A DNA stretch of 57,738 nt, counting the filler, from Rhizaria sp. SCN 62-66 (Eukaryota): the NCBI GenBank assembly GCA_001724265.1. It is 2 parts of 2 records of this genome, joined end to end, with 100 filler letters (N's around TTAATTAATTAA, not from the genome) between each part and the next. Parts side by side here need not be neighbours in the genome. Positions count along the whole stretch, not along the records: positions 29,976 to 57,738 come from MEDY01000396.1; 1 more part is not named here. One strand, written 5' to 3'. Shown here piece by piece: positions 22,701-50,574 of the stretch (its first letter is position 1; every line of letters begins with the position of its first letter). The notes beneath the pieces are model-generated. The model did not search any database. It had not been told where the DNA came from and was given only the letters and a program-made list of their open reading frames with translations. The translations under genes were made by a program, and so were the position numbers.

Positions 22701-25456
22701 CTGAGCCCGCGCAGAGCTACTGCCTCGCCTGCCCACTCGGCAAGCACAGCGCGGGCGACGGCATTAACTGCAACGAATGTGCCGTCGGCCGGTTCTCGAA
22801 CCGCATCGGCGTCAGCGCGTGCGAGGCCTGCCCCTCTGGCGCTTACCAGAGCGAAACGGGTCAGGCATCGTGTCTGCTCTGTTCGCCCGGCACCTACACC
22901 AACGTCTCCGAGGCCGTGGGCTGCACCAATTGCCCCATCGGCAAGGCGCAGCCCTACGCCGGCGGTGTGGGCTGCCTGTCGTGCGACGAAGGCACCTACA
23001 GCCCCAACGTCGGCCAGTCGCGCTGCCGCGCGTGCGAGCCTGGCACGTACAACACGCTGATTCAGGGTACGGCTTGCTTTGGCTGCGACGTCGGCAAGTA
23101 TCAGACGGTGCAGGGTCAGACAACGTGCCATAACTGCCCTGCGGGTTCCTTTTCCTCCGCCAACGCCGTCGAGTGCTCAAAATGCGAAAACGGCATGGCG
23201 AACGAGCTTGAGGGACAGGGTAGCTGCGTGCTATGTGATCCGCTTGTGTCAACGCCCAACAAGGAAGCGACTGGCTGCGACTGTAACGTAGGCTATTATC
23301 TCCCCGACTACACGTCCTACACGAATCTGGGGCTCACTCGCTTCGTTTCCGGCACTAACAACTTTATTTGCTACCCCTGTCCCACTGGCGCAGACTGCAC
23401 GCAGGTCGGCAACAAGTGGTCCGAGCTCAAGACGCTCGCGGGCTGGTGGCGCGCAACGAACGAGTCGTCCGAGTTCTACCGCTGCGCCGTCGCCGACTAC
23501 TGCCCCGGTGGCGTCGCGATGGCAACAGTGTTCGACGAAACCAGTGGCTCCAAGTGCTCTGACGGCCGTCAAGGCATCATGTGCAGCGACTGTGCGCCTG
23601 GACTCAAGACGGGTATTGGCGGTAGCTGCGAGGCGTGCCCCGACGACGCCGGCTCGTACGTTATCATGATCATCGTGCTCGTGCTCGTTGTCGCCCTGAT
23701 CCTGGTGTCGGTGTGGATTCTGTGGAAGGCCGGTGAGGACACTCTGAAGGCAGCGCAGCGCGCGCCGCGGCAAGAGGACGACATGTCCGACGACGAAGAC
23801 GACTATGACATGTACGCCAACGCGTCCGAGGCTGAGCGTGCCAAGCGCACGCGCGACGCCGCTGCCAGTGCTAATAACGACAATGATGAGATGGTGAGTG
23901 ACGAGCTGCACGGCGAGCGCGAAGCGGTAGAACTGGAGACGCTGAACCCATACTCACCCGAACACGTGCACCGCATGTTGCCGGGCCCGCCGCCGCCGCC
24001 GCCCAACTTTACGTACAAGCTCAAGATCTTCCTGTCTTTCATCCAGATTGCTACACACATCGGCACTGGACTGGAGATTCAGTGGCCCAGTACATTTAAA
24101 GAGTTCATCCTCTTCTTCGATTTCCTGAACTTTGACTACATCTTCAGCTCGATCACGTCTGCTGAGTGCTACGACGCCGTGGACTACTACTTCTCGTACG
24201 TTGTCTTTGTGTGTCTGCCGGCGGTGATTATTGTGGCCGTGATGGTGCTGTGGATCCTGCCGCGCCACTTCAACCTCTTCTGCTTCCGTCACCAGGACGT
24301 GTTCCAACGCATGCGCAGCAAGATGCGTTCGTGGCTCATTATCCTGTACGCGCTCTTCCTCCTGTACCCTGTTGTTTCGAGTACCATTCTCAACCACTAC
24401 GTGTGCAAGACGATTCACGACTCGCACAACACGTACTCGTACTTGCTGATCGACCTAGCTGTGCCGTGCAAGACTGACACGTGGTGGTTGTTTGCCTACG
24501 TCGGCGTGCTGCTTGTCATCATCTACCCCGTCGGTATCCCGGCCTTCTTTTTCTTCCTGCTCTACTCGCACCGCACCCGTCTGCACTTGGGCCAGGTTCA
24601 GGCCAAGTTTGGCTTTCTCTACGCAGGCTACCGTGATGGAACTTGGTGGTGGGAGCTTTTGGACACGTTCCACAAGCTTATTCAAACCTCGATCCTCGCC
24701 TTCTTCCCGCTCCTGGTGCAGCTCCCCGTCGGCATGGGCGTCGCGATCTTGTACCTCATGGCCATCCTGCTCTTCAACCCGTACCTGCGCAAGGAAGACG
24801 ACGCGCTTGCGATGCTGTGCCAAAACTTGATCTTCCTGCTCATGCTTGCTGGCTACTTCTTCCAGATCGAAGGCAGTGTCAAGCTGTCGACATCCGAGGA
24901 CGTCGGCATGACCCTGTCTCTGCTTGTCGCTGCAGGTATCTTCCTGGCCGCGTTCGTGTACTACATTGGCCGCGCGTTGTGGCAAGTTGCGCTTGAGCTA
25001 CGCCAGAAGTTCTGCCCTAAGAAGGCCACCCCCAAGGACTTGGCGCAGCTTATGCCCGATCCCACGGACGCGGACACGCACGGACACGCCCCGATTGTGG
25101 CCGAGGAGGACATCACTTCCGGCAGCGAAAACGACAGCGACGACGACGAGTCCAGCTTCGGCGATAGACCGCACGGCGACGCTGCGGGGCACCACAGCAA
25201 CAGCGGCAGCGAGAGAGGCAGTCACGGTGATGGCTCGAGTGCCGCTCCAAGCAGCGACAGCGATAGCAGCGGCGGTGGAGACACAGACGCCAACGTTGAT
25301 GCTCCCCGCTCGCCACAGATGCGCACTCACGCGCCACAAACAGTCACGTTTGGCGGAACAGATGAGCGATCTGTGGCCTACGGGGATGAGTCCGACTCGG
25401 ATCTTTGTGACGTACAAACACCACAAGACGCGAGTTATGAGTTGGCAAGTAATTAA
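10742..25456 (+). CDS. Giant intronless cell-surface protein, 4,904 aa: signal peptide, somatomedin-B-like Cys domain, ~27 IPT/TIG domains, long GCC2/GCC3 (ephrin-receptor-like) Cys-rich array, multipass membrane domain, acidic tail
   Basis: First ATG at 10742 is followed by a hydrophobic signal peptide. CFCDDACCSQNDCC is SMB-like. I counted 27 repeats of the type P-x-I-x-S-V-x-P...G-T-N-F-G...I-x-C...P-x-G-x-G (~11205-18770). CxxCxxGxY/F units span ~18770-23640; hydrophobic helices lie at ~23657-24990. Stop TAA. Confidence 0.93.
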   Translation: MPSVRPGLGLAFAALALLLGLFVPGPLHTTAIVVNGTDYSNFPSYSDGFWFGDWEVASAHEAYEIPGHNCANVLNYPFYGDDETYIYSRLCDVGGCRYYMPYGMPLELANAIGCRDDGGTYCGERRPGPVQCFCDDACCSQNDCCWNNVLLCKSPIISSAQPARAATGPAGTTVVTLSGEGFSCRGSTTDPPAAARVTMHNMRGLPRPADEISPNAVSVPTTNVLNSNQLQVEFLLPEGYGPDWYFFLVNCYELRSPASANLFSYTPPQLNAISPSSGATRGGVAVGAMTTIKGTSFGSASVHSTGVTVARFYCTTNSGGTKTVATTVTSGSSVTGHTDYVFHHPAGEGVCSVSLEISALSVSVSRVYFSYRAPQLKSVTPSTALLPGTRLTIVGTDFGVSGTNTITVNGVECVFVSQTTTGTGNLDDRIICTAPNGSRANQPVMLMTGSQYSNVLLASYAAPIITSVSPVVGVTAGNTAFTINGSGFYTEGILLMGGTTYSSIANASMFTSWAPTRIILRTPPGQGKNVAIYLLVGDQLSDVNTAFSYTAPTIASMNPVSGNAAARVGSNVVITGNNFGLSPAATINGLECVLQSSTHTTLSCTIPSGYGTAKPVVVTVGGQASAAFSWSYAPPLLQSRTPTTGATEGGYALTLVGLNFGDTGSVFLSTSTTATSGINCISSVWNVTTIICALSAGSGKNLYFYISSGGYVTRQTLTFSYSAPTLTSVTPTAGPTGGGTQLVLVGTNFGTGTVAQSTGVTITYSAKAGGSTCTLQSRDHSLIICTTNAGYGTVHTLVVTIDTQAATHVSGTKTFSYDLPVITTITNRAAPTSASPETLMTIIGTSFGATNGTVRLGSVPYLCPATEWSHSRIVCRISPGAGGDLPVTVVMGYNSSVTVTTPTYTMSYNSPSIVAVTPNPVVSAGTIPITVQGSNFGPYDGGTTVAINGNNCAVTSQTHSQIVCTSPPGWGTGLSLIVNARNQASNSYAFSYSSPVITSITPSGLTPLGGVDVTVVGTSFGPGTPAPFVSFGSADCVVKSRTHTQIVCTLPPGAGTVAVQVTVDVLVSNYFNYNYATPTILSAGAACHPTRGGSTLSLTGAYFGSEAPTVRISNRECVVTSYNAVTQASLECTTPATEGKNQTILVSTGGKTASATIFNVCAPAITSITTSNGLHPTTSHVITVIGNYFSDSGIVQMNGYVCTSPTRSVASDAAKDQIVCTVVAGAGRNLPTIVTVAGQASAAALYHYDAPVLQTASIYASDTAGGALVTLTGINFGPAGTGAVTLGGRLCTLASNGWSHSEVRCYVPAGQGLGLNYTLTRVSESSTITSQLFNYSPPTLTGVSPSSIVTAGAVPITLTGTNFGVLGGATVYVQDQSPSDNTNRSCVVTFQTHTQIVCNAPQGFRALVSVSLDVSTQLAALSNSYGYDLPYMYALSPSLYSTGGSSGATDSMTITGVSFGELPGIVRFFFPEGTQDVTGAAITSWTHDRVVVKVPVGSGRDIPVRVISSVDRAHPTQNLTYSYSPASLTSISPISMVTGPESSGSRVLTINGLSFGPTKAESTLFVGELECPVISWSHSQIKCTVPVSQGINLPVALTVSGKEANHIMFSFANPVVTGVTPQNSATTGGVDITVAGTSFGDPDTASSYHDDPVEVTVGGLPCPVVGGTYTHEKIICTLPPGVGTKNGVVVKVGVLVSNSVDYVYAVPSLSSLSPTTADTEGALLTVTAYELGASISLVGVSVGGLVCVIQSNDLLMVDNSDPTRPLQSFTCLLPTGTGKNLALSLSVSDSTVTVLNQFSFNDPHNVTVSPLNWPSNGGVTMLFAGRSMSISPTFRIGSNLCLDVHTAEAHRNFTCTLMPGQGTLLALSMTIGTTTYPLNGTFSYDPPNILSVTPLTGPTAGGTVLTITGVSLGTSGSVTIGGTILGNVVTGGAACAVISGSYSHYGLRCTVPPGMDQGYAVRLQSAERFDIKVPSFEFSYDAPTVSTVSPSNGPAVGHSASAPFLLTITGINFGLATAATAGTSFVTVGGSSCPFTLWTHVRIECELPPGFDQAAVVVSVGTPARTSGTTYQYKLPALTTISPLNGPTTGSAITLTGTNLGAVSLPRTFHASLTGQAAEILIATSGATMTEVTATVGAGVGRNLPFNLFVSYDNAGVARNRTLSTSLLYNYDPPTVTAISSADCDSDVTNTKIVDCPVRAAGITITITGTNFGAPAPHAAPVAHLAAPDCVVASWTHTQIVCTAVGAVGYELDVRVAQSDASVTFAKSVSFKGPKLNGIVSPPGGVLSSTYASQEVQIAVDDAPGVYVGISVTFGPASDPAQFVCAAPSLSAGVITCTVPPGVGMDLVFVARFDIDGSLYQVSQASTGSVTYPAPAFVASSLAMFSTPLDVTDSLIGTVSQGQLLIFDMTNTGVDASLIKIYYFNSDYENECTGVQFYTPTPADPRTIQCATQASQGAPHDGYKFRAVLLNQNSSAPSTFVYAYPEPPVVGKVTTDAANCEESGDGIADCVTAGNFVITIAGSKFPTNGATVRVGQYECPLLSNTQEQILCTLPSGAGRNLAVVVTSGSTFSTARRLVSYASPVLLTITGCTASSATKIIDCSRLTQPVLTITGTNFGPTGATIYMGDHVLSVTHDAATPNSKGTFTLPQGYGLDRALLLMQAGGSSGSGLYVSYEPCPSGTYEQSAIACLPCAAGYFSNIPGTAACSPCNPGTYQLTTGRTICDQCPVGKYSADLARSSNCPDCAPGYTSVAVGQTQCTPCAAGTYRTVSMTACTSCVAGRYANLVSAATSCLSCAAGTFSSARAVTCNSCSQGTYSAAAATVCTACAIGKVQPLTGSSMCNDCVQGTYMPNTGQAVCLLCNDGTWSALGRTVCTNCVRGKYAARAPSSTVGPTVCTNCAEGYYAENEGQPACTECPLGRYTNTTGQSACLLCAEGKYGPTTARTSCQLCGIGTYQDLVGTAACKQCETGKSQHVTGQSVCLPCAQGQYAATPGHQYCDSCAMGRYADDIGSVACAPCASGRFSNAAATAQCTACPSGSYSTRIGEDVLTSCSNCVAGKFAPASGQAACTDCPLGSISAGPGRTACANCQAGTYNDELSMSVCKSCVVGTFSLAGASSCSPCPVGRYTASPGAQACVECAAGRYGATAGLSICSSCQPGRFIGVKGQSACIECPAGRYTSGSQPTVCSLCPVGKFQTSPGQSTCEDCPAGRFTASAGQANCMLCARGEYANTTGSERCRSCERGTVAGSEGLSVCEACDAGRYAPTTRLAACLDCPAGSMNTATGASACSLCTVGKHQTGEGSTMCTDCEVGRYAPALGLHTCIACKAGTFQNSTGTSTCRRCALGTFSAVSGLTACINCDAGRYAPAQEAVTCLACSRGHYQPLQGQSDCLSCPTGQIQPATGMSICSDCLAGTFQAQIGQGSCTLCGAGEYQDAPGTTSCKPCEPETYSVVTNTTAGASVCTACPAGRTQPSPGQASCNLCAPGKFTATTGCEDCPLGHYQDQSGQNSCLPCPTGTYGPDTAMLTCLPCGVGSFTNDTGRTECDKCAAGEYQDVPSSTTCKPCAAGTVTAAVGQAVCGHCPAGRYDANPSGSARTACTSCEAGKFQTDVGTTACLDCGLGYFSANVGQVDCIECPQGKYTSSYGTVECTNCELGRYSDVIGQLMCTDCATGRFAPETGSFSCTNCPAGKIQSTMGQSECVDCENGKFIDVAGRSTCSLCLPGTYAGGVGLTACADCAPGEYTAGYGEETCTSCDAGKFQVNRGRSYCNECSAGRFSPLAHAVSCSACAPGTYTGIEGQSVCVDCEAGKYQFNAGFSACDECPAGSFTAKTRQTRCSPCTSGTYANTTGFTQCTDCNPGRYSMLLGTIGPTTCSECAVGRYQIAYGQGACVECLPGRYTNNTGSLLCPQCDVGSYTADIESQECELCRAGTFSSREGSMICTECGVGYYTAAPGASACLACGAGKYQDVSGGSVCKTCPGGYYQPEPAQSYCLACPLGKHSAGDGINCNECAVGRFSNRIGVSACEACPSGAYQSETGQASCLLCSPGTYTNVSEAVGCTNCPIGKAQPYAGGVGCLSCDEGTYSPNVGQSRCRACEPGTYNTLIQGTACFGCDVGKYQTVQGQTTCHNCPAGSFSSANAVECSKCENGMANELEGQGSCVLCDPLVSTPNKEATGCDCNVGYYLPDYTSYTNLGLTRFVSGTNNFICYPCPTGADCTQVGNKWSELKTLAGWWRATNESSEFYRCAVADYCPGGVAMATVFDETSGSKCSDGRQGIMCSDCAPGLKTGIGGSCEACPDDAGSYVIMIIVLVLVVALILVSVWILWKAGEDTLKAAQRAPRQEDDMSDDEDDYDMYANASEAERAKRTRDAAASANNDNDEMVSDELHGEREAVELETLNPYSPEHVHRMLPGPPPPPPNFTYKLKIFLSFIQIATHIGTGLEIQWPSTFKEFILFFDFLNFDYIFSSITSAECYDAVDYYFSYVVFVCLPAVIIVAVMVLWILPRHFNLFCFRHQDVFQRMRSKMRSWLIILYALFLLYPVVSSTILNHYVCKTIHDSHNTYSYLLIDLAVPCKTDTWWLFAYVGVLLVIIYPVGIPAFFFFLLYSHRTRLHLGQVQAKFGFLYAGYRDGTWWWELLDTFHKLIQTSILAFFPLLVQLPVGMGVAILYLMAILLFNPYLRKEDDALAMLCQNLIFLLMLAGYFFQIEGSVKLSTSEDVGMTLSLLVAAGIFLAAFVYYIGRALWQVALELRQKFCPKKATPKDLAQLMPDPTDADTHGHAPIVAEEDITSGSENDSDDDESSFGDRPHGDAAGHHSNSGSERGSHGDGSSAAPSSDSDSSGGGDTDANVDAPRSPQMRTHAPQTVTFGGTDERSVAYGDESDSDLCDVQTPQDASYELASN

Positions 25457-29875: not shown

Positions 29876-29975
29876 NNNNNNNNNNNNNNNNNNNNNNNNN
29901 NNNNNNNNNNNNNNNNNNNTTAATTAATTAANNNNNNNNNNNNNNNNNNNNNNNNNNNNNNNNNNNNNNNNNNNN
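29876..29975. other. Scaffold gap (44 N + TTAATTAATTAA + 44 N); artificial six-frame stop linker
   Basis: The palindromic TTAATTAATTAA at 29920-29931 is centred in a 100-nt N run and gives stops in all six frames, as used when joining contigs. Confidence 0.95.
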
Positions 29976-32925: not shown

Positions 32926-33772
32926 TCCTGGCTACCACTAGGAACGATGTAGAGTCAAATATGTGGGCGTAGAGGAAGGTTAGCTGCCTGTTCGAGGAGG
33001 CGTGGGATGATGACGACTGGGCCCATAAATATCTCAATTTAGGCGTCCACAGAAAAGGCAGACAGATAAAACAAAATATTAACTTAGTATAAAAAACGGA
33101 TTTGCTGCTATATATCAACCTGTTTCACCAACGGACGGTTTCTTCGTCGAGTTAGGTCATGTTTATTATTTTGTGTCGTGTTCAGACAGGACAGACAGGA
33201 CCGAAAAACCGTTTCGGGTAGTACTCGTCTCAAAAGTGTAACTTGTGTGTTTTCATGGTCACAGAAGACCTTAAATCATTAGCTAGCTTAGTTGCCAATT
33301 TTATTGTGCATACTGCGCATTTTTTAATCAAGCATGATGCTCTTGTATTGCTCCTAGCGGCAAAGCGCGCGATATCCTCGCAGAGACTGTCGAGTTTTCT
33401 CGTTTCTCAAACGCTCTAAAACGCTGCATCTCTATGATGCTGCCGAGAATGGTGCCCAGAATTCGAGGTTTTACGAAGGCCATTCTTCGTATTTCGTCAT
33501 GGCTTCTAGCCCGAGCTATAAGAACTACAAAGCGCCGGATACGAACAACAAGCTCTATAGCTACCGTGACCTTTACACTGACGTGTGGACTTGAGTCAGA
33601 TTCAGGAGGGCTTGCCGCTCATGTTCGATGGCATTGGCTACGATCATCAGATGTGCGTTGATACGAGTGAGGTGACGGAGGGTGAGGAGACCCCTAGGCC
33701 CCGTACATTTACTCATGCGAATTTTGAATATGTGGAATGTGTTTGGAACTTGATGAATTCGTTCACCTAGAT

Positions 33773-35040
33773 TCACTTAGTAGCGCTCTCGCGCTCAGCG
33801 GCGGCCCGCGCGGCCTCAAACGGCTCAACAACATCGCCGTCGCCGCAGTCCTCCTCTACCAGCGCACCGATGTCCGTCACTTCCTGCTCCGTCAAGTCCC
33901 ACGACTCACTCTCCGTCGCACCAGCAGCAGTAGCAGCGCTGTCGGCAGCAGCGCTCTCGGCATTAGCGCTGGGGCTAACGGTGAACTTGTTGCTGCCGTG
34001 CCAGGCGCCGAGGTCTTGCGCCATATGCTCCGCGCTGCACGTGCCAGTCAGCGGCGCAACGCCCCGGTGCATGAGGAAGCGGAACAGCACCTGCTCGGCC
34101 GTCTTCCCCGTCCGCCGGGCCGCGCGCTTCACTGCAGCAGATGCGAGGAGCTGCGGATTGCCGGTGAGGGTCCAGAAGGACTGGTAGACGATGCCGTGCT
34201 CGCGGCAGAAGCGCCGCAACGCGCCGTCGTGGCGCGTCTCGCCGTACCACCGGTTCTGCAGAACCGCGGGCTTGATCGTCGCCTTGGCATAGAACGCACG
34301 GAAATCCTTGAGAGAGTAGAAGTTGGAGACGCCGAGTTGGGAGGCGAGTCCGCTCGTGTGGATGGCCTCCATCGCGCGCCAGACGGCGAGCGTGTCGGCC
34401 GCGCGCGAGAGCGGGCCGTGAAGCACGAGCGAGTCGACCTTGTCAATCCCGAGCTCGCTCTGGGACGTCGCGAAGGAAACGCGGACTTGTTCAGCGAGGG
34501 GAAGCTTCGGGTCGTAGGGGCACCGCGCAGGGTCCTGGCCGTCAAACGAGGTGAACTTGGTCTGCACGAAGACGTCGTCGCGGGTGACAACGCCCGCGGC
34601 GAAAAGGCGGCGGAGAGCCTCACCCACACCGGGCTGGTGGTAGTGCTTCGGCTACGCGTTGTAAATAACGTTGACCAGTGATTGACGGTGAGTGATTGTT
34701 GTTGTGAGAGTGTGGTTGTAAGTGGGCATGCGCCGTGTGTCGCGTTGCATCAAAGTTATACGAAAAAAGAGAACACAAATAAAAAAGGTAAGCATATGAG
34801 GATATGTTGGTGGCAAAGTGATAGCACAAACATATACGACGACAGAGCGGGGAAGATGTGGCGCGTGCTTAGGGCCTGAGGGGGGGGACGTACCTGGCAC
34901 GCGGTGTCAACACCGCGGAAACCCAGCTTGAAGGCCTGCTCGACAAGGTCGGCCGTGCGCTCCTTCTTCCAAGCCGTGCCGTAGATCATGCGGGGCATCA
35001 TCACGCCCGCCGACGTCTTGACGTGCGTCGAGAGAGACAT
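33773..35040 (-). CDS. Aldo-keto reductase, ~341 aa (exons 35040-34894 and 34651-33773)
   Basis: Spliced MPRMIYGTAWK...GFRGVDTACQ|PKHY...VGEAL...RDDVFVQTKF...DSLVLHGP...LGVSNF. 242-nt GTACGT...TAG intron, phase 0. Stop TGA. Confidence 0.92.
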
Positions 35041-35444: not shown

Positions 35445-38400
35445 ATGCTCGCTCGTCGGCTATCCATAGCCACATGCAAGATGTTTGGGCCTCTCGTCGC
35501 GACATCAGCGAGTTCTCTTCCAGCCCCAACTGCCACCGTCTCCGCATCCCCCCGCGCGACCTCCACATTCACTTCGCTGTCCGCGGCCAGGACTCTCGGC
35601 CCCACTGTTAGCTTCATCATCTCGCACCCAGCCAGTCGCTTCACTTCCAGCTCCTCAGCTCCTGCGGACATTGCGCCCCCCGAGCACGGTTCATACAACC
35701 CGCCGAACGTGGACGCTGATCCGCACTTAGTCACATCCGCCGGCGGGCTACCCGCCTCCATCCCGGCGCCGCTGCGTGCACTGCTCGAACGCTCGGGCCC
35801 CACCAAGTTCCCCAGCTACTTCGACGACGAGGCGCGCAATGTCCGAGCCGAGCTCGCCTCCGCCCGCCGCGGCTCCGCAGCCCACGCGCTCACCATCGCA
35901 CTGCGCCGGCTCTGCGACGACGGCTTCCCGGGCGCTGCGCTGGCGCTGTTTTTCGGCACCCCCGAGCGCAACGTTGCACATTGGTCCGTCATGCTACACT
36001 CCCTGCAGCGTTCGGGCCACGAGCTGCTCTTCCGCGCTCTCTGGGACGCGCTGCTGCGCTCGCCCGTCGCGCTTGACCCCGTGCTCCTCACGCGCCCGTT
36101 GTTGGCCGCGGCCGGCGACGGACAGGTCCTCGCCGCCGAACGCATGCTCACACTGCTGATCACACACGGATCCGCTGCCCCCGCGCCCGCGCTCGCGTTG
36201 CTGGCCCGCTCGTACGCCCGCGCGCCCTCGGACGCCTCCGCGCGCCGCGTGCTCGCGCTGGCGGAAATGCAGCTCTCCGCGCAGCTGCCCACCGCCGCGC
36301 ACGCCGACGCCGCCGTCGCAGCCAAGCCCTCAGCGCTGCCCCGCGTCGGCCACCGCCGCGCGGACCACTCCGCGCTCGCCGCGGCCTCTGCGACGGCCGT
36401 CTCCGAAGCGCTGCCGTCGTCTCTCCTCGCGTCGCTGCTATGGGCGCTCCCGCGCCTCGGCGCCACGGCCGCAGCGGTCGAGCTGCTGCGCCTGCGCACT
36501 CTGGCTGACCACCGGCTCCGCGTGTCGGACCTCACGCCGCTGCTCGCCGGTCTCGCCCGCGCCGGCGCACCCGACCTCCCCGCGCTTGTGCAGTGGGCAC
36601 GTTTTGCCGCGGCATTCGCGCCCGACCCCGTGGCCGCCCCCGCCGCGTACGTCGCCTCTGCGGCCGCGCTGCGTGCCGCCGGTGCGCATACAACCGCGAT
36701 CAAATGGCTCGCACTAGTCTTTCCGTCCTGCGCACCCGACGTCGCGCTCGCGGCACGGCCCTACGCCGTCGCACAGCTTGTGCAGTCGCTCGCCGACGCC
36801 CACTACGTCCGCTCTCTCGTCTCGCTGCTCGCGCGCGCGCCCGGGCGGCTTAACTTACGCCAGCACATGCTCGCGGCCAGCGCGCTGACAGCGGCCGGTC
36901 AAGCCGTGCCCGCGCTGGCGCTGGCGACCGCGCTGCCCGCCGCCGCGGATGCCGTCACGACGTGGAGCGCGGCGGCCGCGCACGTGTTGTCGCGCGGGCT
37001 TGGCCAGTGGGCGACGGCGGCTGCGCTGAGCACCGCGGCCGAGGCCTCCGGGGACGATGCCGCGTTCGCGGCGGCGCCGGGGCTGCGTGCGGCGCCGGCG
37101 CTGCGGCACCGCGCTCTGTTCTCCGCAGCTCCCATTCCCGCTCCGACAGTGAAAGCCTCACAGAGCGCGACTGCGATGCCGGAGGCCTATGTTCAGAAAG
37201 ACGATGATGAAGACGACTGGGCCGGACTAGACCCCTTTGCGCTCGACGCGAGCCAAGAAGTTTGGTTGGGCGCCGCCACCGAGCTCATGACCCACAGTCA
37301 GAGCTCTGACAACAGCAACCAGACAACTCCCAAGCTCAACGCAGCTGGCTTCGCGACGGCGTTTGATCTGTCACTGGGCGACGCGCTGGCGCCTGCGGAC
37401 GGCCGCGACGACGGCCCCCGCGGCATAGCCGTGCGCCACCACCGCCGCGCCCCACCTCTCCAGAACAACATGCCCTCGCCAGTCACTTCGGCGGCGCACG
37501 TGGACCAGGTCCCCACGTCGACGACAGACCGCAGCGCGCCGCCCGTGGCTCCGGCCGCCACTTACCGCAGCGCGCTCACGTCCGTCGCACTGCGCACAGC
37601 CGCGGCGCTCGCGCGCGCGCTGCCGTCCGCCTCCGCTGGGGACCCCGCCGTGCACGAGGCCGAGGCGGCGGCGCTGCAGCGCGCAGTGCTGCTCTCTTGC
37701 GGCGCGCTGCCCGTGGCGTCGCCGCAAGACGCCGTCGACGCCGTGTTCGCGCTCGCGGTGCGCGCGTGCCACGGCGCCCGCGGCGCCCCCGCGCGCGCGG
37801 CGCGGCTGCTCGCCCTCCTGCGCGCGCTCGGCTCCCACGGTCTCACCGCGGCTGTGGAGGACCTGCTCCGCGCCGCGCCGTGGCTGCGAGCGCTGCCCCA
37901 GGCCCACTGCGAGCACGCGCGCGCGCACTCGGTGGCCGCCGCCGCGCGCACCGCCGTCGCAGCCGGCTTCGCGCCGGCGTCAGAGATTCAGACGCTGCAG
38001 CGCACACTGCCCACGGGCTCGCCCTCGTACCGGCGCACGCGTGCAGGCGCGATCGACACCACCCGCGCCCGTGGCTTCTCCCGGCTCACGCGCGAAGTGA
38101 CTCTCTCGCTGGACCTCGGGCCCGGCGGCGCCCCGCGCCTGCGGCTCCCGCCCGCGCTGATTGCGCGTATCGACCGCGTTGCGAGCGACCCCGCGCAGCT
38201 CCGCGCCGCCGCCGTTGCGCTGCAGGCCTAGCTCCTGCCGACCGGCCCCACAGCGCCCAAGCCCGAAGACGTCGCGGTGTTTGCGGCGTCGCGCAACCCG
38301 CGCCTGGGACCGTGGGCGCTCAACTCTCTCCCGCCGCGCCCGGACCGCGCCGCGTTCTCCGCCGTTGTGTCGGCCATGCGCGCGTGGGAAGAGGCCGCCG

Positions 38401-41400
38401 GGGCGGGCGCGCCCGATGCGGGACTGTTTGCACAGCTCCTCGCTGACGCCGGTGCGCGTGGTGATGTGTGCGGAGTGCTCTTCTGGGCGCTCGTGCAGCG
38501 CAACCATGAAAGTGCGCGCTCACTCCGCGAAATTGTTCCTTCTACTCCCACCACATCTGCCGCTTTCTCTGTCTCCGGCTCTGCGACGGCAGCGGCCGTG
38601 TCGGCGGATGGCACTGCAGCGGCCGCGGACCCGTACAGCGCGCTCTGCAGCGGTCCCTCGCGGCCGCTCGCCGCACTGACCGCGGCCACCGCGCCCTCGC
38701 GCGCGCTGCTGCAGGCCGGCCCGCTCGGCCTGTACGGCGCCGTCGACAGCGGCAGCGCTGTGGAGACCGCGCTGGGCCTCGCACACCGCGCCGCGTTCTC
38801 GGACCCAGGGCGCGCGACCGTGCCCGCCGCCGCCGCGCTGCTGCGGCCCGTCACGCCCACGCTCGTCCCGGCGTTCCCCGTCGCGGCGGGTGCGGCCCCC
38901 GTGCCGCTGCCGCTGCTGGCCCGCGAGTCCCCGACCGCCGCCTCCGCCTCCGCCTCGGCGACCGGCGGCCGCGCTATGTCCGCGGTCGGCGCGGCGACCG
39001 CGGCGGCCGCGGCTGCGATGGGGCAGGACCCGTCTCTGTCGACCCTGCCCTTCACGCCCGCGATGCTGCGGGAGCCCGACGGCGTCGTGCCTCTCCCGGC
39101 AGGCGCGGGTGCGGCGGCCGCGAGTGACGCAGCGACTGTGCTCGGCGCCTCGGCCCGCGCGCCGCCGACGTCGGTCGCCGCGATGCTCGACGCGCTCGCG
39201 CTGCCGCGGTCTGTGGTGACGCCCGTGAGTCTACAGGAGCACTTCTCACTCACCGCGCCCTTCGACGGCGGCGTGATGCCAGTCGCTGACCCGACCACCG
39301 CGGGCCCCGCCGCCGCCGCCGCCGCGCCACTGAGACTCGGCCTAAGCCTCGGACTCGGGCTCGGCATCACGCGCGGGACCTACGACACGTACTCCGCGCT
39401 CACCACTGCATTGATGCGCAACGACGCTCCTCGCGAGGCGCTGCGCATGTTTTGGCGGCTGCTTGCCGTCGCCGAGCGTCTCGATGCCGACACAGCCCAC
39501 GGCCGCTTGCACCTCCCCGTGCCGGTGCCGGAGAACGACGCCGACGCCGCCCCAGAGATGGACGCCGCGGCCGGTGATAGCGGCAGCGGCAGCAAGCTCC
39601 GCGTCGTGCCCCCGTCGTCTTTCGGCGCCGGCCGCGTGTCCCTGCGCACCCCTCGCGCTGCGGCCTTCGCGCAGACCCAGTCCGCGCTGCTCCCCTCACT
39701 GCCCCCGCGGAGCGAGCCCGCGGCGCTGCGCATGCGGTCCGCCTTGGGCGCCGGGGTCGCGGTTGCCGGGGACGCGCCGCCCGCGGTGTCCGTGGCCGTG
39801 TCGTGGGCGCACATGCTGATGTACTTTGGCGAGCTCTCGCACCGGTGCGCTGCCATCGCAACGGCCGATGACCCGGGCGCGCTCATTCTTGCTGACGGCG
39901 GCGGCGCGAGCAAGACCAGCAAGACCGGCATCGAGGCGAGCGCGTTGAACGTGCTGGACAGTCAGGAGGAGCCGCTCGCTGCGATGCTGGCCCTGCCCAC
40001 AGTCACCCCGCATCCCGCGGCGGCCGCCACAGCCGAGCGTCTCGCTAAGGGGATGCAATTGCTGGAGACGCGCGTCAAGCTCGGCCTTCCCGACCTGCCC
40101 GAGAGCCACTTCGTCTCGTCTGACACGCCCGACGACGACTTGCCTGCAGACCGCCCGTTTCCCCCCGCGGCGAAGCCAGCAGCGGCGAAGCCAGCAGTGG
40201 CGAAGCCAGCAGTGGCGAAGCCAACAGCGGCGAAGGCAACGACGACAAAGCCCGCAGCGCCAAAACCACTCTCTGCGGCGGCTGCTTCTGTGGCACCGCG
40301 CGCCGCCGCCGCGGCCGCCTCTCTCGTTTCCCTTAGCGGCGAGTTTGACTGGCTGGAGCTTTCCGCGCGCGCGCTCGTCTCGGAGTGGGCGCGCGGTCCC
40401 CTCCGCGCTGCCGGCAACGCGCTCGTCGACGCCGCCGCCGCGGGGCCCTGCGCCGCGCTACCACCGGCGCTCGCCGCCGCCGTGGGGCAGCCCGCCGCCG
40501 TGGCCGCCGCGGCCGCCGCGGGCGACGCCGAGGCCGAGCTCGCGTGGGCGCCGAACCAAGCGCTCGCAGCCGCCGCGCGCTGCCGCCGGCAGCAGCTCGA
40601 CGCCAACGCCGCCCGCGCCGCGCAACAGACTGGCGGCGCCGGGACACAGGTGACGCTGACCGGGTCCACCGCGACCGCGCCCGTGGGGCCCGTGGTGGCG
40701 CCGACGCCGCAAGTACTGACCGCGCTGGTGACGTTCTGGGCAGGCCGTGCGCGCGCGCGGCTGAGCGCCGGGGCTGACGCCGCAGCCGCGGTGTCGCTGC
40801 TCGAGTCTGCACGCGCCGTGTCGGCGTATATCGCCCTGGTCGAGGGCCTCGCCCCGCGTCCTGTGACCGGCGGCCCGGATAATGCGCCGGCGCCGAGCGC
40901 AGTCGCGCATTTCTCGCACTCAACAGCCAAGCTTCACCACAGCGCGACATCCTCCGTGAAAAAACCCTCCGCGTCGGCGTCGGCATCGGCGGACGTCCCG
41001 GCAGACATGCACAGCAGTGGATTGACCGAGACCGCCACAAGCGCGCTGTCGTGGCGTGCTGCCCTGCTTTTCTGCTCTCAGGCGGGCGATGTCCTGAAAC
41101 TGGCGACGAAGACTCGGCCGCAAAGCGCGCTGTGGAGCGGGCCCGCGTCCGCGCACGCGCGATATGCGCTCAACCGCAGCGCGCTGCAGCTGGTCCAACA
41201 GCAGCCTTTGCTTACGGGCGGGCCCGAGGGGGCGGAGTTCGCGCGAAAGCTCGAGGTCGAAGCGGCCGACGCGGTCGGCGTTCTGAGTCGGCGGAACGCG
41301 CCCGCGGTGCTTACGGATGGCGACGCGGCCGCGGGCGTGGAGCTGCCCGTGTTTGCGGTGCTGCCGGATGAGTTGGCGCACAAGTACTGGGAAGAGGCGT

Positions 41401-41531
41401 GTGTTGTGGGGAATGACCGCGTTCTCAACAACACAGAGGTGCGCCGCTTGAAGGACGTACTCAAAGCGTTCGATGTCATGCGCGGGGTGATTATCACTGC
41501 GGTGCCTGATCTGGCAGGATCAGCTGTCTGA
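35445..41531 (+). CDS. Probable single ~2,028-aa organelle-targeted protein with degenerate pentatricopeptide (PPR)-like repeats; one in-frame TAG at 38229-38231
   Basis: Track ORFs 35445-38231 and 38277-41531 share a frame with uninterrupted GC-rich, coding-like sequence across the TAG. PPR-like motifs occur on both sides (PERNVAHWSVMLHSLQRSG; PDAGLFAQLLADAGARGD; TYSALTTALMRNDAPREALRMFWRL). N-terminus MLARRLS resembles a mitochondrial presequence. Final stop TGA. Confidence 0.65.
40170..40244 (+). repeat. 15-bp coding tandem repeat (about 5 imperfect copies) encoding AKPAA/AKPAV
   Basis: GCGAAGCCAGCAG(C/T)G units are directly visible. Confidence 0.85.
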
Positions 41532-42975: not shown

Positions 42976-45900
42976 TTAAAGCAGCATACGTGAAAAATCA
43001 TTCATATATGCCGCCACCACGGTATCGATCGCCTCAACAGCAGCCGCAGCAGCAGCGTCCACAGTCAGCGTCGGGCGCCACGGTAGCGCCACTCGATCAG
43101 CACTATCTACCCTCGCATTTGCACCGGAGAAGCTCGCGCTCGCGCTCGTTGTGACGACCGTGGCGGCGGCACCGCAGCCCTGCTGCTGCGTGACCCAAGC
43201 CAGCAGCAGCGCAGCAGCCTCCCAGCGCGCGTGCGGGCGCAGCGCAGCGTACGCCCGCGCCAGCGTCGCGCCGTCAACGGCCGAGCCCAGAGCCTGCTGC
43301 AGCGCAACGGGCACGGCCCCCGCGGTCGCGATCAGCAGCTCACGCGCGTACGGCGTGGCGACCCCCGCCGCAGCTGACGCCGCCGCCGCGCGCGCGGGCG
43401 CTCCGGCCGAGCCCCGCAGCGCGCCGGCCAGTTTGGTCACGACGGCGGGCGGACGGCCCACCGGCAGCGGCGCAGCGGCCACCACGCCGGAGCCCGCGGC
43501 GGCGTCCGCGGCGGCGGATGCGGCGGCCGCGGAGCCCGCCAGCGGAGCCTGCGCGGCGTCGAGGCAGTACAGTCCACCGGTCGACGCCGCGTGGGTGGCG
43601 AGTGCAGCGACACGTGCCCAGTCGACCGCAGCGCCCGCACAGCCAGATAAAGCGCGGGAAACGCAGGGCGCCAGCGCGGCGTCGCCGCCGTACAGCCACG
43701 GCCACGCGCCGTCGGCGTTCTCAGCACTGTCTGCAGCTGCGGCGTCAAGGTCGACGTCGTCCGCAGCCGCCGAGGCAGACGCAGACGCTGACGCAAAGGA
43801 AGATGACGAAGAGTTGGCGTTGCGGGCGCGTTTAGCAGCCTGCGTTGCAGGGTCACCACGGCGAGTTGCGCGGCGGTTCTTATCACGCGCGCGCGCTTCT
43901 TTCGCGTTCACGTCAGCAAGCGCCGTCGCGTTGGCCTGGCGCCAGCCGTCGACCGCAGTCGCAGCGAGCACGGCCACGGTCAACATGCGCAGGAAGAGAA
44001 ACTGCGGCAGCGTCAGCGGCGCAAGCGGGCCCACCGCGCCTGCAACCGAAGCCCACACGTGCGACGGCGCGGGGGTGGTTAACAGCGCAGTAACATCGGC
44101 CTCGTTCAGGAACGTGCCTTCTAGTGGCGTCTCGGTGCTACTGCTGCTCCGCGCGGCCGCGAGCGAGAGCGCGACAAACGGGTGTGTCGCGGCGGCCGCA
44201 GCGACTGCGGACGCTGTAGCGTTCGGGCCTAGCAGCGCCGCGGCCGCTGCGGTGCCCAAGCGCGCGTGCAGGGCGCTGGCGGGCGCTTGGCCCAGCGGCA
44301 CAAGGGGGGCCAGAACGTTTATGAGCGCTGCTGGGTGCACCGCGCCAGTAAGGCGCAGACGCTGCGGCAGCGCGGCGTTTGCGGGCGGTGCGGCGCGGCG
44401 CAGCAGATGCTGCAGCGGGGACGTTGCGTCAGGTGACATGAACAGCAGTGAGCCCGCGTCGTCGCTCAGTGCGAGCGCGCGCGAGCCCGGTAGGGGCGCG
44501 GCGTCAATGCACCAGCGCTGCGCAAAGTCACGTGCAGCGGGCAGGAGCGCGTCAGCAGCGGCGTCGTAGCGCAGCACCGCCACGGACGCGTTGAGTGTGC
44601 CCATCACAAGCACTTCCTCGCCTTCGCCCTCGCCTTGGCCCTGGCTCTCAGCATCCGCACTGGCGTCGAAGGGTGACGAACGGCCCGCGCGCAGTGAGAG
44701 TACGAAGATCTCTCCCGTGTACGCGGCCAGCGGCAGCAGCCGGAACGGATATCCGGTCTCCGCGGCGGCCGGCAGCGCGGCGCGGTGCCAGCCGTAGATG
44801 TGCACCGCGCCGTTGACCGCAGCGGCGAGACAACCGCGGAATACCGCAAGCGCGCTCACTGCGCCGGCGACCGTGCGCCGCGCCGCCACGCTTACAGCCA
44901 CGCCTCCCGCGCGCACGCCGCCGGGGCCGGCGTCGGCGGCGGTGGGCGCGACAGTAAGCACGAGAATGCGGCCCAGCGCGGGCTCAGCCTCGCCGGGGCG
45001 CGAGAAGCCTGTGCCGACAGCGAATGCCGCGACGCCGAGCCCGGCCGCGGCCGGGGCGGCGCGGCGCAACGAGGCCGTAGCGCCGGGCGCGAGCCGCGGA
45101 AGCGCGACGGGCACCACGCACAGCGGCTCCTCACCGGGCAGCAGGCGCAGCGCGGCGAGGTAAGACATGCCCAGCACAGAAAAGAACCGCACAAAGCCTT
45201 CTGCAGCGGGCTCATTCGCGGGGGGCGCGGCGCCAGTCACGCGCGCGAGAGCGGACGCGGGCGACGGCGCGGTGTCGGCGGCGGCCGCGACTGCTGCGGC
45301 TGCGGCGGCGGGTTCATGGGCGACGGAGAACACGGGGGCGTCGCGCGGGGCCGGCGCGGCGGCGGCGGCGAGCGCACCGACGGGGAGTGGTGCGGCCAGC
45401 GCGGCGGCGGACAGCGCAACAGCGGGGCGAGCAGTGTCCGCCGTGAACGGCAGCAGCGCGTCGGCGCGTGGCTTCACAGTTGCCACGGCAACGACTCCGA
45501 GCCGCGGGCAGAGTGCAGCGCGGCGCGGCTGCTCATCAAGCGCATACGCGCGCTCAAGAGGCGCTGTTGAGGACTGCAACGCGTGCAGGCGCGGGGCCAT
45601 GCGCGGCTGCGAGCGGCGGGCCAGCGGGGCAGCAGGCACAGTGAGCAGAGCGTCACTGGTGCAAGCCGTAGTTTCCACTCCAATCGTGATGGCAGCTGCG
45701 CAGACAAGCGGGCCACTTGCCAGCGCCAGCGGAATCAGCGGAGCGCGTTGCGCAGCTTCCTCGGCGTCGTCCGCGGCTTCCTCGTCCGTGCGCAACGTTT
45801 GCGGGACGGGGTCATCGCGCGATTCGATCTCGATATCGCTGTCGTCACCGCTGTTCGTAGTCGCCTTCTTGACAGCCACGGGAGCTGACAGCTCCACACC

Positions 45901-48900
45901 GGGTGTCGCAGACGAGAGCTCCAGTGCAAGAGGCTTGTCACACGCGGCAACTTGCCTCGGCTGCAGCACCGTAGCGCGTCCACGCGAGTCCCGCGTTGCG
46001 GTCACAACCACATTTAACGCAGGCGCGCCGCTTGCGGTGGCCGTTAGCATGTGGGGCGCGCCCACGGCGAGCGCCCAGCCTGCCGCGCCAACGGCGGCGC
46101 CGACGGGGACAGACAGCAGCGCACCGGACGCGAGCGCAGCGACAAGCGTAAGCGTGCGCGGCGGCGTCCGACCAGCAAGTACTGGTGCAAACGCAGCATC
46201 GGAGTCAGAGTCGGGCACCGTTAGCGGCCGTAGGTCAGCCAGTGCAAGCGAGGCTGCGTGCGACGCGCCAGGCAGCGGCACTGTCGCAAGGTGAGACAGC
46301 GCAGTTGAGCCCGCGCGCCATGCGAGCAGCTGTAAAGCCGGAGGTGCAGCCGCGGCAGCACAAGTCGCCACGGCCAACACGGATACCGAGTCTAACGCGG
46401 TCGAAGCGGGTGACTCGAGAGCGCATAGTTCGCCGTCAAGCAATACATGTGTGACGGGAGCGGAGGCGTTTGCGCCTGCGGTGGCCGCTGCAGCAGCGCG
46501 TGTGGCGGGCAGCGCAGACGCAGCGGCTGCAAGCCCTGCCCAGGGCAACTGCGGCGCTGCGAGAAGGTACGCTGCGACAGCACTGCCCTCGGCAGCCAGA
46601 GGCATCGCGGTGACGACGTCAAGCGTCCAAGTGGGGAGCGAGTCTCCAGTTGCAAGGCGAATCTGCATCATAGCTAACGCGTGCGTGGGCTCGGTGCCAT
46701 CCTCAACTGCAGCCATGAGCGCAAGAGAGACTATGCCGCTCTGCAAGGACGCCGCCGAGGTCGCATAGACGGCAGTCGCTGACGCGGCTACACCGAGCGC
46801 GGATGCTATAGCCGGCCACACGTCAGACACGGCAACCCTCAGCGCCGTGGCACCGCTGCCCCACACAAGCACAGCGTCAGGCGTCACTTGAACCAGCGCG
46901 CTCACTGCTGCAGCAGCAGCAGTGCACTCGGGACCGAGCGGTGCAGTCAGCACCGAGCCTAGGTACAGCGTTGCCTCCGCGCTCGCGTCGCGACTGACCT
47001 CCGCCGCTGCAGGAACAAACTCCGTGCTCTCGGCTGCACACAGCGCCGCAAGAGGTCGCTCTAGCAGACGTGCATCAAGCCTGGGCTCAGCGATCCCCGC
47101 GAGAACGCACAGCGCGCCGGGCGCCCACTGTAGCGGCGCGTACGCAGTGAGAAACGCCCCGCAGGCACAGTTGCTTTCGGCCGCACCGCCGCGACGGGGC
47201 GCGCCGCACGCGCAGTTCGGCGCCATCAGCGCGGGCAGTGCGCGAGCGGGCGCGCGCAGTGTGATGCCGCGGCGCAGCAGCGTGAGCGCACCGCCGGCCG
47301 CCGCGCCGCCGCAGAGAAGAACGCCACCGCCGAGGTGCGCAGGTAGAGCGAGAGCGTCCACCGCTGGTGCCGCGCTTGGGTACGTTGCCTCCACACGCAA
47401 CAGCTGCTGTGGGATGGCTGCACTTGCTGCGTTCTGCTGGTGATGTTGCTGTGAGGTCAGTGCGGTGAGTGCAATGCGGAGCAGTTGTGAGGGCGCAACC
47501 GCGGATGCGAGGAAAAGATATCCGCTGTCGAGATAGGCCAGTGCGGCCGCGGGTGATGCAGAGCCAAGTGCACGGTAGCGCAGCCGCACGCGCGGCGCTG
47601 ATGTGTCAAACCCAGCGAACGTGTCGTCCGGCACTGTCGTCGAGAACGTCAGCGCCGCCTCAGTCGCTGTACCTGGCTCAGCCTTGACCTCGCCGCGCTT
47701 GTGGCCGCTAGTATGGGTGTGCGCAGGGAAAAACGTTTCGATCTCAAGTAAACCCAGTTGTCCGGTCGAGTCGCTGACGAGCACGCGCGACACACTGCCA
47801 ACAACGCCCGCCGCGCGCAGCGGCGCGGCCCCAAGCACCGCCAGCGCCGACAACCCGGCGGCGGCCGACACAGGCCGAGTGGCAGACACGACCGTGAGCG
47901 CGCCCGCCGGCAGCACACGGCCCGCAAGAGCGTTGGCGGTATCAGTCAGCGCAGCACCCGCGCCCAGCGTCGTGGCTACCGCTGGCGGCGGCGTCGGAAC
48001 GGGGGCGCCAGCGAGGACGGCGCGCACGGCGGCCAGCGCGGCGGGGTAGATCGCAGTCGCGTGCGCGCGCGCGTCGGACAAAACGCGCGCAAACACTGCG
48101 GGGGGCAGCGGGGAGGGCGCGTCCTCACCCGCCGCAGCCGCACCCGCCGAAAGCGCCGCCGCCGCTGCTGATGCTGCTGCATTAGAGCTTGAGCTAGCGG
48201 ACGAAGCAGTAGCGAGACGACTGGCGGCGCGAGGGGGCGGGAGCGCCACGCCCGCGCGCGCGCCGCCGTCCTTGCCGTTCGCGTGCAAACACGCATGTAC
48301 GCCGGGGCCCAGCACGAGCAGTCCGCCGGCCGGCAGCGCGGCGAGCGTGGTCGCAGCGGGCGCGACCTCAGTCACGGGCCAAGGACCGGGCACGAGCGCG
48401 AGCGCTGCCGTGGGCCGCTGCACGCGCGCGGAACCGGTGCCGGCGCCGGTCGCAACGGCGGCTGCGGCGGCCTCTGCGGCGGCGGCGGCCAGACGCGGCG
48501 GCAGCGAGGATGTGAGGTGCTCGATGACAGCGTCAGCCGCGTTCACCACAACACGGGTGTCGGCGCCGGTCACGAGGTAGGTCCGCACGAAGCGGCGCGC
48601 AAGCTCGTCCTGGAACAGCACGGCGAGCAGCGGCAGCAGCCCCGCCGGCCGCGCGACGAACGCGAGAGACAGAATCTGCAGCTCTTCGATGCGCACGTCC
48701 ACGCCCCGCACGCGCCCAACAGCACTCGCACCCAGGCCTGCACTGGCGCTCGCACTGACGCTAGCGCTGGAGCTAGAGAGAGCGTTGGAGTGGGCGCTAG
48801 AGCTGTGGTGAGAGACGGAGCGCGCCGCCGTGCCGTCTGGCGCGAGCGGAACAAGGTGGATCAGACCTGCGTGCGCGTGCACTGCGAGAACGCCAGCGGC

Positions 48901-49593
48901 TGGGTCAACCGCGCACAGAGGGCCGGACTGCGCGCGCGGGGGCGCGGCGTCGCCCGCAAAGCCGGAGGTGCCGGCGCCGGCGCAGCTGCCGGAGAGCCGC
49001 GTGCGCAACGAAGGCGGCGCTGCGCCATTGGCACTGGCACTGACACTGGAGTCGACACTGGCACTACTGGCACTGGCGCTGATGCGATTATGAGGAGAGC
49101 TGGAACTGGCACCGGGGGGCTAGCACGTAACAGAAAAGAAGCGCATCTCCTGCGTGCACACAAAGAGATAGTCCGTCATGCGTGGCTGAGGCAACGGCGG
49201 AAGAGTGGTCTCCGTCTCAGCGGCAGCGGCGGCTGAGGCACTACGGCGGGCTGAGGGTGGCGGCGGCAGGGACGCGATGAGGTGTTGCCGCGCGAGACGA
49301 GCGAGAAGCTCGCGCGGCTTGTAGAGAAACATTCCCGCAACGGCGCCGTGCAGCGGGACGCGGAATGAGTCTAAACCACGAGGGGTGACAAGTCCGACCT
49401 CAAGCGCGGAGCCCTTGGCCACCACGACGTTCAAGTCGGTCTCGCCCGTGAAGCTGCCCGAGCACGCGTGAGTGGCGGCGGTCGCCTCTTGGGCCACGCC
49501 AAAGTACTGGTAAGGCGTCGGCTGTGCGGGAGGATCACCGAAGTGCAGGGGCGCGACCGGTGTGGGAGGCGCGTCGGTCATCAACTGACTCAT
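42976..49593 (-). CDS. DDB1: DNA damage-binding protein 1 (CUL4 adaptor)-like, expanded to ~2,205 aa by Ala-rich insertions; one in-frame TAG at 49120-49122
   Basis: N-terminus YFGVAQEATAATHACSGSFTGETDLNVVVAKGSALEV...TDYLFVCT matches the DDB1 start. Same frame after the TAG: SGPLCAVDP...GLIHLVPL, DVRIEELQILSLAF, LAYLDSGYLFLAS..PSQL, AVGTG..PGEAEP.LGRILV, GAV..L..FRG.L.AAVN, AARDF...W. Final stop TAA. Confidence 0.85.
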
Positions 49594-49882
49594 CCTGCTC
49601 AAGTCAGACGAGGGGTGGGCGCGCGGGTGCGGAATGGAAGCTCTATGAAGGATCTGAAGGAAATAATAAACAAAAATAGAACATCAGTGTGCCATATAAC
49701 GTTGATTCAAAAATGCACTCTGTACACGGAAGTTTGACTTCACAGCACAAGTGTTGGACACTCCCATCAGGTCCGAAGTCGGCCGAGACTGTGGCACCGA
49801 GGCAGGCAAGTGAGCTCACTTTATCTAGATCAAAGGCCGTCGAACGGGTTCGTGTGAATCAACAAGCACACTTTGTTTCATT

Positions 49883-50574
49883 ATGGTACGTCTAATTAAT
49901 TGTCTTCGCTAAATTACATATTTTAGATATACCATCCAGCCGCACGTGTATTCGTTTTGAGATCTCACATGCCCTCCTACGTCGTCGGTGCCTGTTAGGA
50001 GCTTGACCGTCGCATTCTGGACTCGCTGTCGCTGGGCAACAGCGAGGGCGTTTTTGACGACAAGCAGTTTGCGAAGCTTGCCGACGCGGTTGCGCGCGTG
50101 GCGTCGAACGAGGTGGACGCCGAGACGATGGAGAAGGTCCTCGCGTCGATGAAGACTGACGCCCTCAAGACGAAGCAGCTGTACACTGCGCTGCTCAACC
50201 TGGCCTATGAGGCCGCTCGCCACGACGCGAAGCTCCCCGAGATCACATCATTTGTCGACGACCGGCTGTCGAGCGACCGCCTGGAGGCTTTCTACTCCAT
50301 CTTCGACGCCAGCAAGGCCAAGATCCGCTCTCAGCTCGCTCGCAACTCGATTTCCTTCCCCGACGTTGTCGACATCGCGTGGCGCCTCGACTATTACGTG
50401 CAAAACAATCAGCTCGAGCACATCCGCACGCCCGTGTTTTTCGTCACGCTTACGACGCAGGCCGCGGACGGTTCGCTGGGCACGGTCGAGTTCACTGCGT
50501 CTGTGCAGGAGCTCCAGGACCTCCTTGCGCGCGTCAAGGAGGCCTGTAACGCCGCCAAGCTCGTCACTATCTAA
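49883..50574 (+). CDS. COMMD3: COMM domain-containing protein 3, 192 aa (exon 1 is the ATG only, 49883-49885; intron 49886-49998; exon 2 49999-50574)
   Basis: ATG|GTACGT...TTAG|GAG gives M-E-L-D..., like the MEL start of COMMD3. COMM domain: PDVVDIAWRLDYYVQNNQLE...P.FFVTL...FTASVQELQDLLARVKEA. Stop TAA. Confidence 0.88.

Follow-up and report, generated by a model that had tools for sequence, protein, structure and literature searches.

An in-frame TAG within the first beta-propeller of a DDB1 gene from Rhizaria sp. SCN 62-66 is probably read as an amino acid

The window analysed here, by which we mean the whole stretch of 57,738 nucleotides (filler included) from Rhizaria sp. SCN 62-66, belongs to an uncultured wastewater organism that is GC-rich and intron-poor, uses GTACGT splice donors and encodes giant TIG/ephrin-receptor-like surface proteins. 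A predicted giant surface protein is encoded by a single 4904-codon exon on the plus strand (10742-25456); it has a signal peptide, 25 IPT/TIG domains, about 50 ephrin-receptor-like Cys repeats and a tail with several membrane passes. Near the 3' end of another, 811-codon TIG-repeat gene lie two 44-base N runs (29876-29919 and 29932-29975), with the last 33 codons and the TAA beyond them. The mixture of gene strands, the presence of introns and the ARID/PHD and ephrin-receptor-like domains of the proteins led us to reject an organisation in kinetoplastid-style polycistrons. Two enzyme genes lie on the minus strand, and the plus-strand ORFs that overlie them (939-2417 and 33737-34681), although the longest with an ATG at these places, were rejected as genes, being antisense shadows:

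954-2318, minus strand: 2-oxoglutarate dehydrogenase E2
33773-35040, minus strand: aldo/keto reductase, two exons

The gene that concerns us most spans 6.6 kb and encodes a putative DDB1 whose reading frame is broken at one place only, by a TAG at 49120-49122. Its parts are as follows:

42976-49593, minus strand: putative DDB1 ortholog of 2206 codons including one in-frame TAG, with its ATG at 49593-49591 and its terminator TAA at 42978-42976 (from the ORF and its translation)
49123-49593, minus strand: N-terminal 157 codons, first blades of DDB1 propeller A (PF10433 profile 3-77, human DDB1 3-70)
49120-49122, minus strand: in-frame TAG at codon 158 followed by C (TAG CCC CCC), read from the sequence
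49012-49119, minus strand: lineage-specific Ser/Ala-rich insertion, residues 159-194, starting at the TAG (gap in 73/77 homologs; pLDDT 45-64; GC 0.654)
42976-49119, minus strand: the 2047 open codons after the TAG, covering the remainder of propeller A together with propellers B and C (the latter CPSF_A)

Under the standard code this frame is interrupted at codon 158, where the minus-strand translation reads ...TDYLFVCTQEMRFFSVTC-TAG-PPGASSSSPHNRISASASS...LRTRLSG; counting back from the TAG, 187 open codons lead to the previous stop, and 157 to the ATG. At the local composition a stop triplet is expected about once per 50 codons by simple arithmetic, so that an open frame of 2047 codons is not due to chance. 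The next ATG after the TAG is at 47226, some 630 codons downstream, and the downstream part of DDB1 therefore cannot be started and made on its own. Against Pfam, the whole translation matches PF10433 (the first propeller of RSE1/DDB1/CPSF1; E 1.6e-15, 57.4 bits, cut-off 26.9) and PF03178 (CPSF_A; E 2.6e-14, 53.8 bits, cut-off 27, residues 1554-1901). Scanned separately, the 157-residue piece matches positions 3-77 of the PF10433 profile (E 2.6e-5), and the stretch just past the TAG matches positions 102-195 (E 6.8e-6). In a sequence search of the PDB the N-terminus is colinear with human DDB1 residues 3-70, DDB1 is matched on both sides of the TAG, and all 39 matches at E<=0.01 contain DDB1, with CPSF160 and SF3B3 in none of them. 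Together with the Foldseek matches described below, this suggests that the protein is more similar to DDB1 than to either paralog, CPSF160 or SF3B3.

Relatives close enough for a comparison proved elusive. An exhaustive phmmer search of 1.84 billion cluster representatives recovered the organism's own fragments and beyond them only proteins of at most 36% identity, and a search with the DDB1 N-terminus among proteins of 151-482 residues recovered the organism's own fragment alone. A word-index search with residues 1-700 gave 0 matches, being swamped by Ala-rich words, and a scan of metagenome contigs with the 157-residue piece returned 590 pattern stretches with neither the organism itself nor any relatives among them.

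To place the TAG within the protein, we aligned 77 homologs of at least 400 residues from the exhaustive search with MAFFT. The residues before the TAG, DYLFVCTQEMRFFSVTC, align on the conserved strand pair D.LF..TE.Y.FCVL.Y, and the column directly preceding it is aromatic (Y in 41, F in 12 and W in 12 of the 77 homologs, with C in 5). The TAG itself opens an insertion that has no counterpart in 73 of the 77. A predicted structure agrees with this picture. In an AlphaFold model of residues 1-420, in which the TAG was entered as Q merely as a placeholder, the mean pLDDT is 71 and the strands at 142-147 and 151-158 reach about 91-94; residue 158 closes the confident strand 151-158 and is followed by a low-confidence loop (159-194) and then by further confident propeller strands. 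Among the Foldseek matches listed for this model, the best are all human DDB1 (E about 1e-14, about 328 columns). The Pfam parts, the PDB matches and the model with its Foldseek hits establish that a single propeller fold spans the TAG. The peptide strings and codon counts of the preliminary description (157 before and about 2,050 after the TAG) were correct, and its statement that the flanks are consecutive parts of DDB1 is borne out by the two adjoining PF10433 segments and the 39 of 39 PDB matches. The alignment and the model likewise uphold its argument that splicing to the TAG as acceptor would cost the protein a conserved strand. It had added that the amino acid cannot be deduced here, and the gap in 73 of 77 homologs bears this out, since the site opens a lineage-specific insertion.

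The TAG-bearing stretch also occurs in bioreactor and wastewater metagenome runs, whose contigs we compared with the window over 47500-50500, bearing in mind that contigs drop rare variants. Run X2 has a 557-nt contig across 48694-49250 with 0 differences, and run X4, from another study (2025), a 250-nt contig across 48986-49235, also with 0 differences. X4 additionally contains a 1641-nt contig that crosses the spacer and includes the intron of the neighbouring gene in unspliced form, and we therefore take X4 to be DNA. X2 and X3 are filed under different studies and years, yet their record lengths match, as do their depths and loose ends; they probably represent a single data set deposited twice, and we do not treat them as separate evidence. 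The depth of the X2 contig at the TAG is 8.1, compared with 5-6 for its neighbours, so there is no drop. Not one letter differs in any compared piece, about 2.3-2.7 kb per sample in samples about ten years apart, which suggests that the population is nearly clonal. Recorded proteins show the same split: P0004 (153 residues) stops precisely at the TAG and P0277 (2010 residues) lies downstream of it, each coming from 3 contigs. These observations establish that the DDB1 TAG is real DNA and not an assembly error. A polyA metatranscriptome (X6) contains exact contigs for 47726-47991 and 48327-48552, but none that crosses the TAG, barely covers the bin 49116-49216 and is uninformative either way; in addition, an RNA library of this kind can contain DNA.

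Because in-frame TAGs can also mark the 3' ends of introns, the introns of the window need to be considered. Three of them serve as comparators:

34654-34892, minus strand: intron of the aldo/keto reductase gene (GTACGT...GCGTAG; GC 0.473), with Pfam profile positions 51-274 within exon 2
49887-49998, plus strand: intron right after the ATG of the COMM-domain gene adjoining DDB1 (GTACGT...TGTTAG; GC 0.42)
7568-7702, plus strand: 135-nt in-frame intron of the ARID/PHD gene (GTATGT...TTAATTAG), joining two ORFs into a frame with no internal stops

The last of these unites the ORFs 3197-7576 and 7754-9850 into one plus-strand gene of about 2170 codons (3197-9850). At the start of the COMM-domain gene (49884-49998, plus strand) the junction reads ATG|GTACGT...TGTTAG|GAG, and the COMM_HN profile begins at residue 7 of exon 2. 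An alternative start of this gene at 49969 would bring another TAG in frame; the register of the Pfam HN domain favours the intron model over that start. Further introns are found in the calmodulin-like gene (one), the p24 gene (two) and the gene starting at 54938 (one). The seven introns recognised in the window all share the GTNYGT donor pattern and span about 110-280 nt; three of them end in TAG. The three that we measured have a GC content of 0.42-0.51, which is near that of 13 intergenic spacers (0.37-0.52) and unlike that of exons. The in-frame TAGs at 34654, 49996 and 7700 were accordingly rejected as sense codons, being intron 3' ends.

When ORFs are bounded by TAA and TGA only, one further long gene with a single in-frame TAG appears in the window:

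35445-41531, plus strand: second gene with an in-frame TAG (38229-38231, GCC TAG CTC), 2028 codons, Ala-rich, ending in TGA

The frame is the same on either side of this TAG, and the 1099 codons that follow it are free of any other lesion. The 144 nt between the TAG and the next ATG have a GC content of 0.757, compared with 0.37-0.52 in the 13 spacers, and the GC1/2/3 pattern continues unbroken across the TAG, which makes two separate genes without a spacer unlikely. Searches with this gene found no Pfam family and no homologs.

At the 13 gene ends of the window that could be scored, after correction for strands and introns, the terminator is TAA ten times, TGA three times and TAG never. TAA dominates gene ends despite a GC3 of about 0.8. 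Within coding sequence TAG is found twice in 15,574 codons (13-14 genes), a frequency of the same order as that of AGA, the rarest ordinary sense codon, which is present five times. If TAG were a neutral twin of CAG, the TTG/CTG ratio of 111/533 would predict about 80 TAGs by arithmetic; a synonymous codon in free use would be about 50 times as common as TAG is here. As to the decoding machinery, the window contains no tRNA genes and no Rfam matches.

A metagenome scan with the E2o enzyme yielded 76 loci, of which one, L001, is close. L001 is a 21-kb piece of a 318-kb metagenome contig with a GC content of 0.53 and has no gene order in common with the window; its E2o has an overall identity of 64%, rising, as judged by eye, to near 87% in the catalytic domain, where the nearest library proteins have 87-90% identity. 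Of its seven gene ends, five are TAA and one is TAG (6136-6138), and no in-frame TAG is present in about 5,170 codons. Reading through the terminal TAG would add an extension that looks non-coding and would run into the convergent neighbour. At the L001 rate of 1 in 7, finding no TAG among 13 gene ends has a probability of about 0.13, so that the stop-usage argument is weak by itself.

What, then, does the cell do at codon 158? The best-supported reading, which we infer from the evidence above, is that the ribosome probably reads UAG at this position as an amino acid. We tentatively favour the explanation that this gene is a functional DDB1 ortholog whose UAG is so read. A real change in the status of UAG, to a rare sense codon with UAA and UGA remaining as stops, is likewise our tentative preference; it is favoured by the lack of TAG terminators in the window and by the precedent of UAG-only codes, and the case for it rests mainly on two intact genes with one real TAG each. 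UAG would then be mostly freed from its role as a terminator, UAA and UGA would be kept, and UAG would serve as a very rare sense codon by way of a putative UAG-decoding tRNA, possibly with a change in eRF1. It would be tolerated mainly at unconstrained positions, and in DDB1 it would open a disordered, lineage-specific loop after a conserved beta-strand. The organism may even be at an early step of reassigning UAG from stop to sense, with the codon gone from gene ends and its first sense uses placed in unconstrained loops of long, fast-evolving proteins, although we consider this more specific scenario doubtful. There are limits to the case for a code change: such codons number just two, both sit at unconstrained sites, no amino acid can be inferred from them, TAG is far rarer than a free synonym, and the L001 relative terminates at TAG. 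The proposal of the preliminary description that the TAG is translated thus gains from the second in-frame TAG and from the 0 of 13 gene ends, and loses from the termination at TAG in L001; it remains an interpretation.

The in-frame TAGs of both genes could also be explained by leaky, context-dependent readthrough: TAG would still be a terminator, but near-cognate tRNAs would read UAG-C often enough for full-length protein to be made in workable quantity. C follows both internal TAGs, whereas each of the 13 true stops has a purine in that position, and in eukaryotes no context terminates more weakly than C at +4. The great rarity of TAG compared with a free sense codon and the use of TAG as a stop in L001 point the same way. 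However, the chance probability of C at +4 in both of the two cases is about 0.06 (24% C at codon position 1), and the true TAG stop of L001 is also followed by C. RNA structure downstream of the two TAGs does not exceed that of shuffled controls (z 0.92 and 0.03), TAG is found at none of the window's gene ends, and a basal rate of a few per cent would be very costly for a protein of 2206 codons with an essential role in many eukaryotes. On balance, we think it unlikely that leaky readthrough accounts for these genes.

Alternatively, the TAGs could be young nonsense mutations, either recent inactivations or null alleles of a diploid or polyploid clone whose intact allele has been dropped by assemblers. 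The exact sequence is on record from 3 contigs only, no close DDB1 relative was found for comparison, and contigs tend to lose rare variants. Moreover, TAG is, by arithmetic, the commonest stop reached by one substitution from the frequent codons CAG, GAG, AAG, TCG and TAC, and DDB1 is dispensable in some fungi. On the other hand, two of about 14 genes would be affected, yet 2047 and 1099 downstream codons carry no other lesion. The same letter recurs, with 0 differences between studies about ten years apart and low diversity, the X2 contig at the TAG has undiminished depth, and nothing else resembling DDB1 at more than 36% identity was found among the 1.84 billion cluster representatives, a library not tied to the organism. 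That two of about 14 genes should each carry a young nonsense mutation is possible, but improbable.

A change at the RNA level, by an unconventional or very short intron or by base editing (for example UAG to UGG by A-to-I editing, which is known in some fungi), would leave the ribosome with no UAG to read. The organism has introns, three of the seven ending in TAG, and the DDB1 TAG sits exactly at the start of an insertion relative to homologs, downstream of the pyrimidine-rich run CTTCTTTTCTGTTAC. Candidate in-frame GT...AG units can be drawn here, GTTACGTGCTAG (12 nt) and GTGCTAG...CCAG (21 nt), and the second TAG likewise closes an in-frame GT...AG unit of 18 nt. Such lengths of 12-21 nt are far below the intron sizes seen in the window, and a longer intron would remove conserved strands. 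The GT sites just 5' of the DDB1 TAG (GTTACG, GTGCTA, GTGTGC and GTGCAC) include none that fits GTNYGT, and GTACGT is absent from the minus strand of the DDB1 gene, which agrees with the earlier statement that a GTACGT-type donor is missing. GC around the TAG is 0.58-0.65, compared with 0.42-0.51 in the measured introns, and one frame stays open throughout. The site thus does not fit the combination that marks spliceosomal introns in this organism (a GTNYGT donor, a YAG acceptor, sequence AT-richer than exons and more than 100 nt), and removal or alteration of the TAG in RNA seems very unlikely. Bypassing or frameshifting at the TAG was rejected by eye, the same frame being open on both sides and the matching out-of-frame TGC leading to TAA. 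A sequencing or assembly artefact, conceivable for a metagenome-derived scaffold in a window with two N runs elsewhere, is nearly excluded by the identical letters in independently assembled contigs (X2/X3 and X4) and by the identical split in recorded proteins from 3 contigs.

If UAG is indeed read as an amino acid in this organism, it would join a small set of eukaryotes with UAG alone as a sense codon, possibly at an early stage, and would show how a UAG change begins and which genes and positions tolerate UAG first. It would provide a natural intermediate for testing codon capture against an ambiguous intermediate, given a relative about 87% identical (in the enzyme domain) that still stops at UAG. 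There would also be a practical consequence, since gene callers that use the standard code cut proteins at TAG, as in the 153-residue and 2010-residue pieces under which this DDB1 is already recorded, and annotation of eukaryotic bins from wastewater metagenomes would have to take the code into account. Should the TAGs prove to be null alleles, the finding is an ordinary one. Among the papers listed by our literature search, none described an activated-sludge protist with a UAG change. To our knowledge, nuclear codes in which UAG alone is sense are confined to a handful of lineages, nearly all described from transcriptomes and with the change complete.

Comparison with known systems helps to place these observations. 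Human DDB1 (for example PDB 9bbe and 3ei1), the CUL4 adaptor with three beta-propellers, resembles the protein described here in its first and CPSF_A propellers and in its colinear N-terminus. The two differ in length (about 1140 residues in human DDB1, 2206 here), share about 17-30% identity, and the TAG interruption is found here; the roughly doubled length is due to Ala/Ser-rich insertions. Stop readthrough at UAG-C by near-cognate tRNAs, programmed or basal, is a known phenomenon, and in known programmed cases it adds a C-terminal domain to a complete protein at low efficiency. The DDB1 gene shares with these cases a UAG followed by C and a single stop within a long open frame, but its stop comes as early as codon 158 of 2206, interrupts a folded domain and has no predicted stimulatory structure.

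The closest parallels come from genuine reassignments of UAG. According to the available part of one report, UAG encodes Leu in the rhizarian exLh, where 71 genes carry 384 in-frame UAGs, frequently at conserved leucine positions, and Gln in Iotanema spirale (PMC5304391). The same part gives 56 UAA and 15 UGA terminators for exLh and a relative that still appears to use the standard code with UAG as a stop, so that a reassignment of UAG only, with UAA and UGA kept as stops, has a precedent (PMC5304391). As far as that part of the report goes, the organism studied here is like exLh in having in-frame UAGs in otherwise intact genes, a preference for UAA (UAA/UGA of 56/15 in exLh and 10/3 here) and a close relative with an apparently standard code, as L001 appears to be; it is unlike exLh in having 2 UAGs in 15,574 codons, both in unconstrained loops, rather than 384. 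Among ciliates, the accessible portions of two further reports describe UAG reassignments in phyllopharyngeans (PMC11687900) and an oligohymenophorean in which UAA and UAG differ in meaning (PMC10553269). Judged by those portions, the organism here would share with these ciliates a UAG decoupled from UAA; in the features observed it is not ciliate-like, being GC-rich (0.54-0.76 per 2 kb), having GTACGT donors in its spliceosomal introns and ending most of its genes in TAA.
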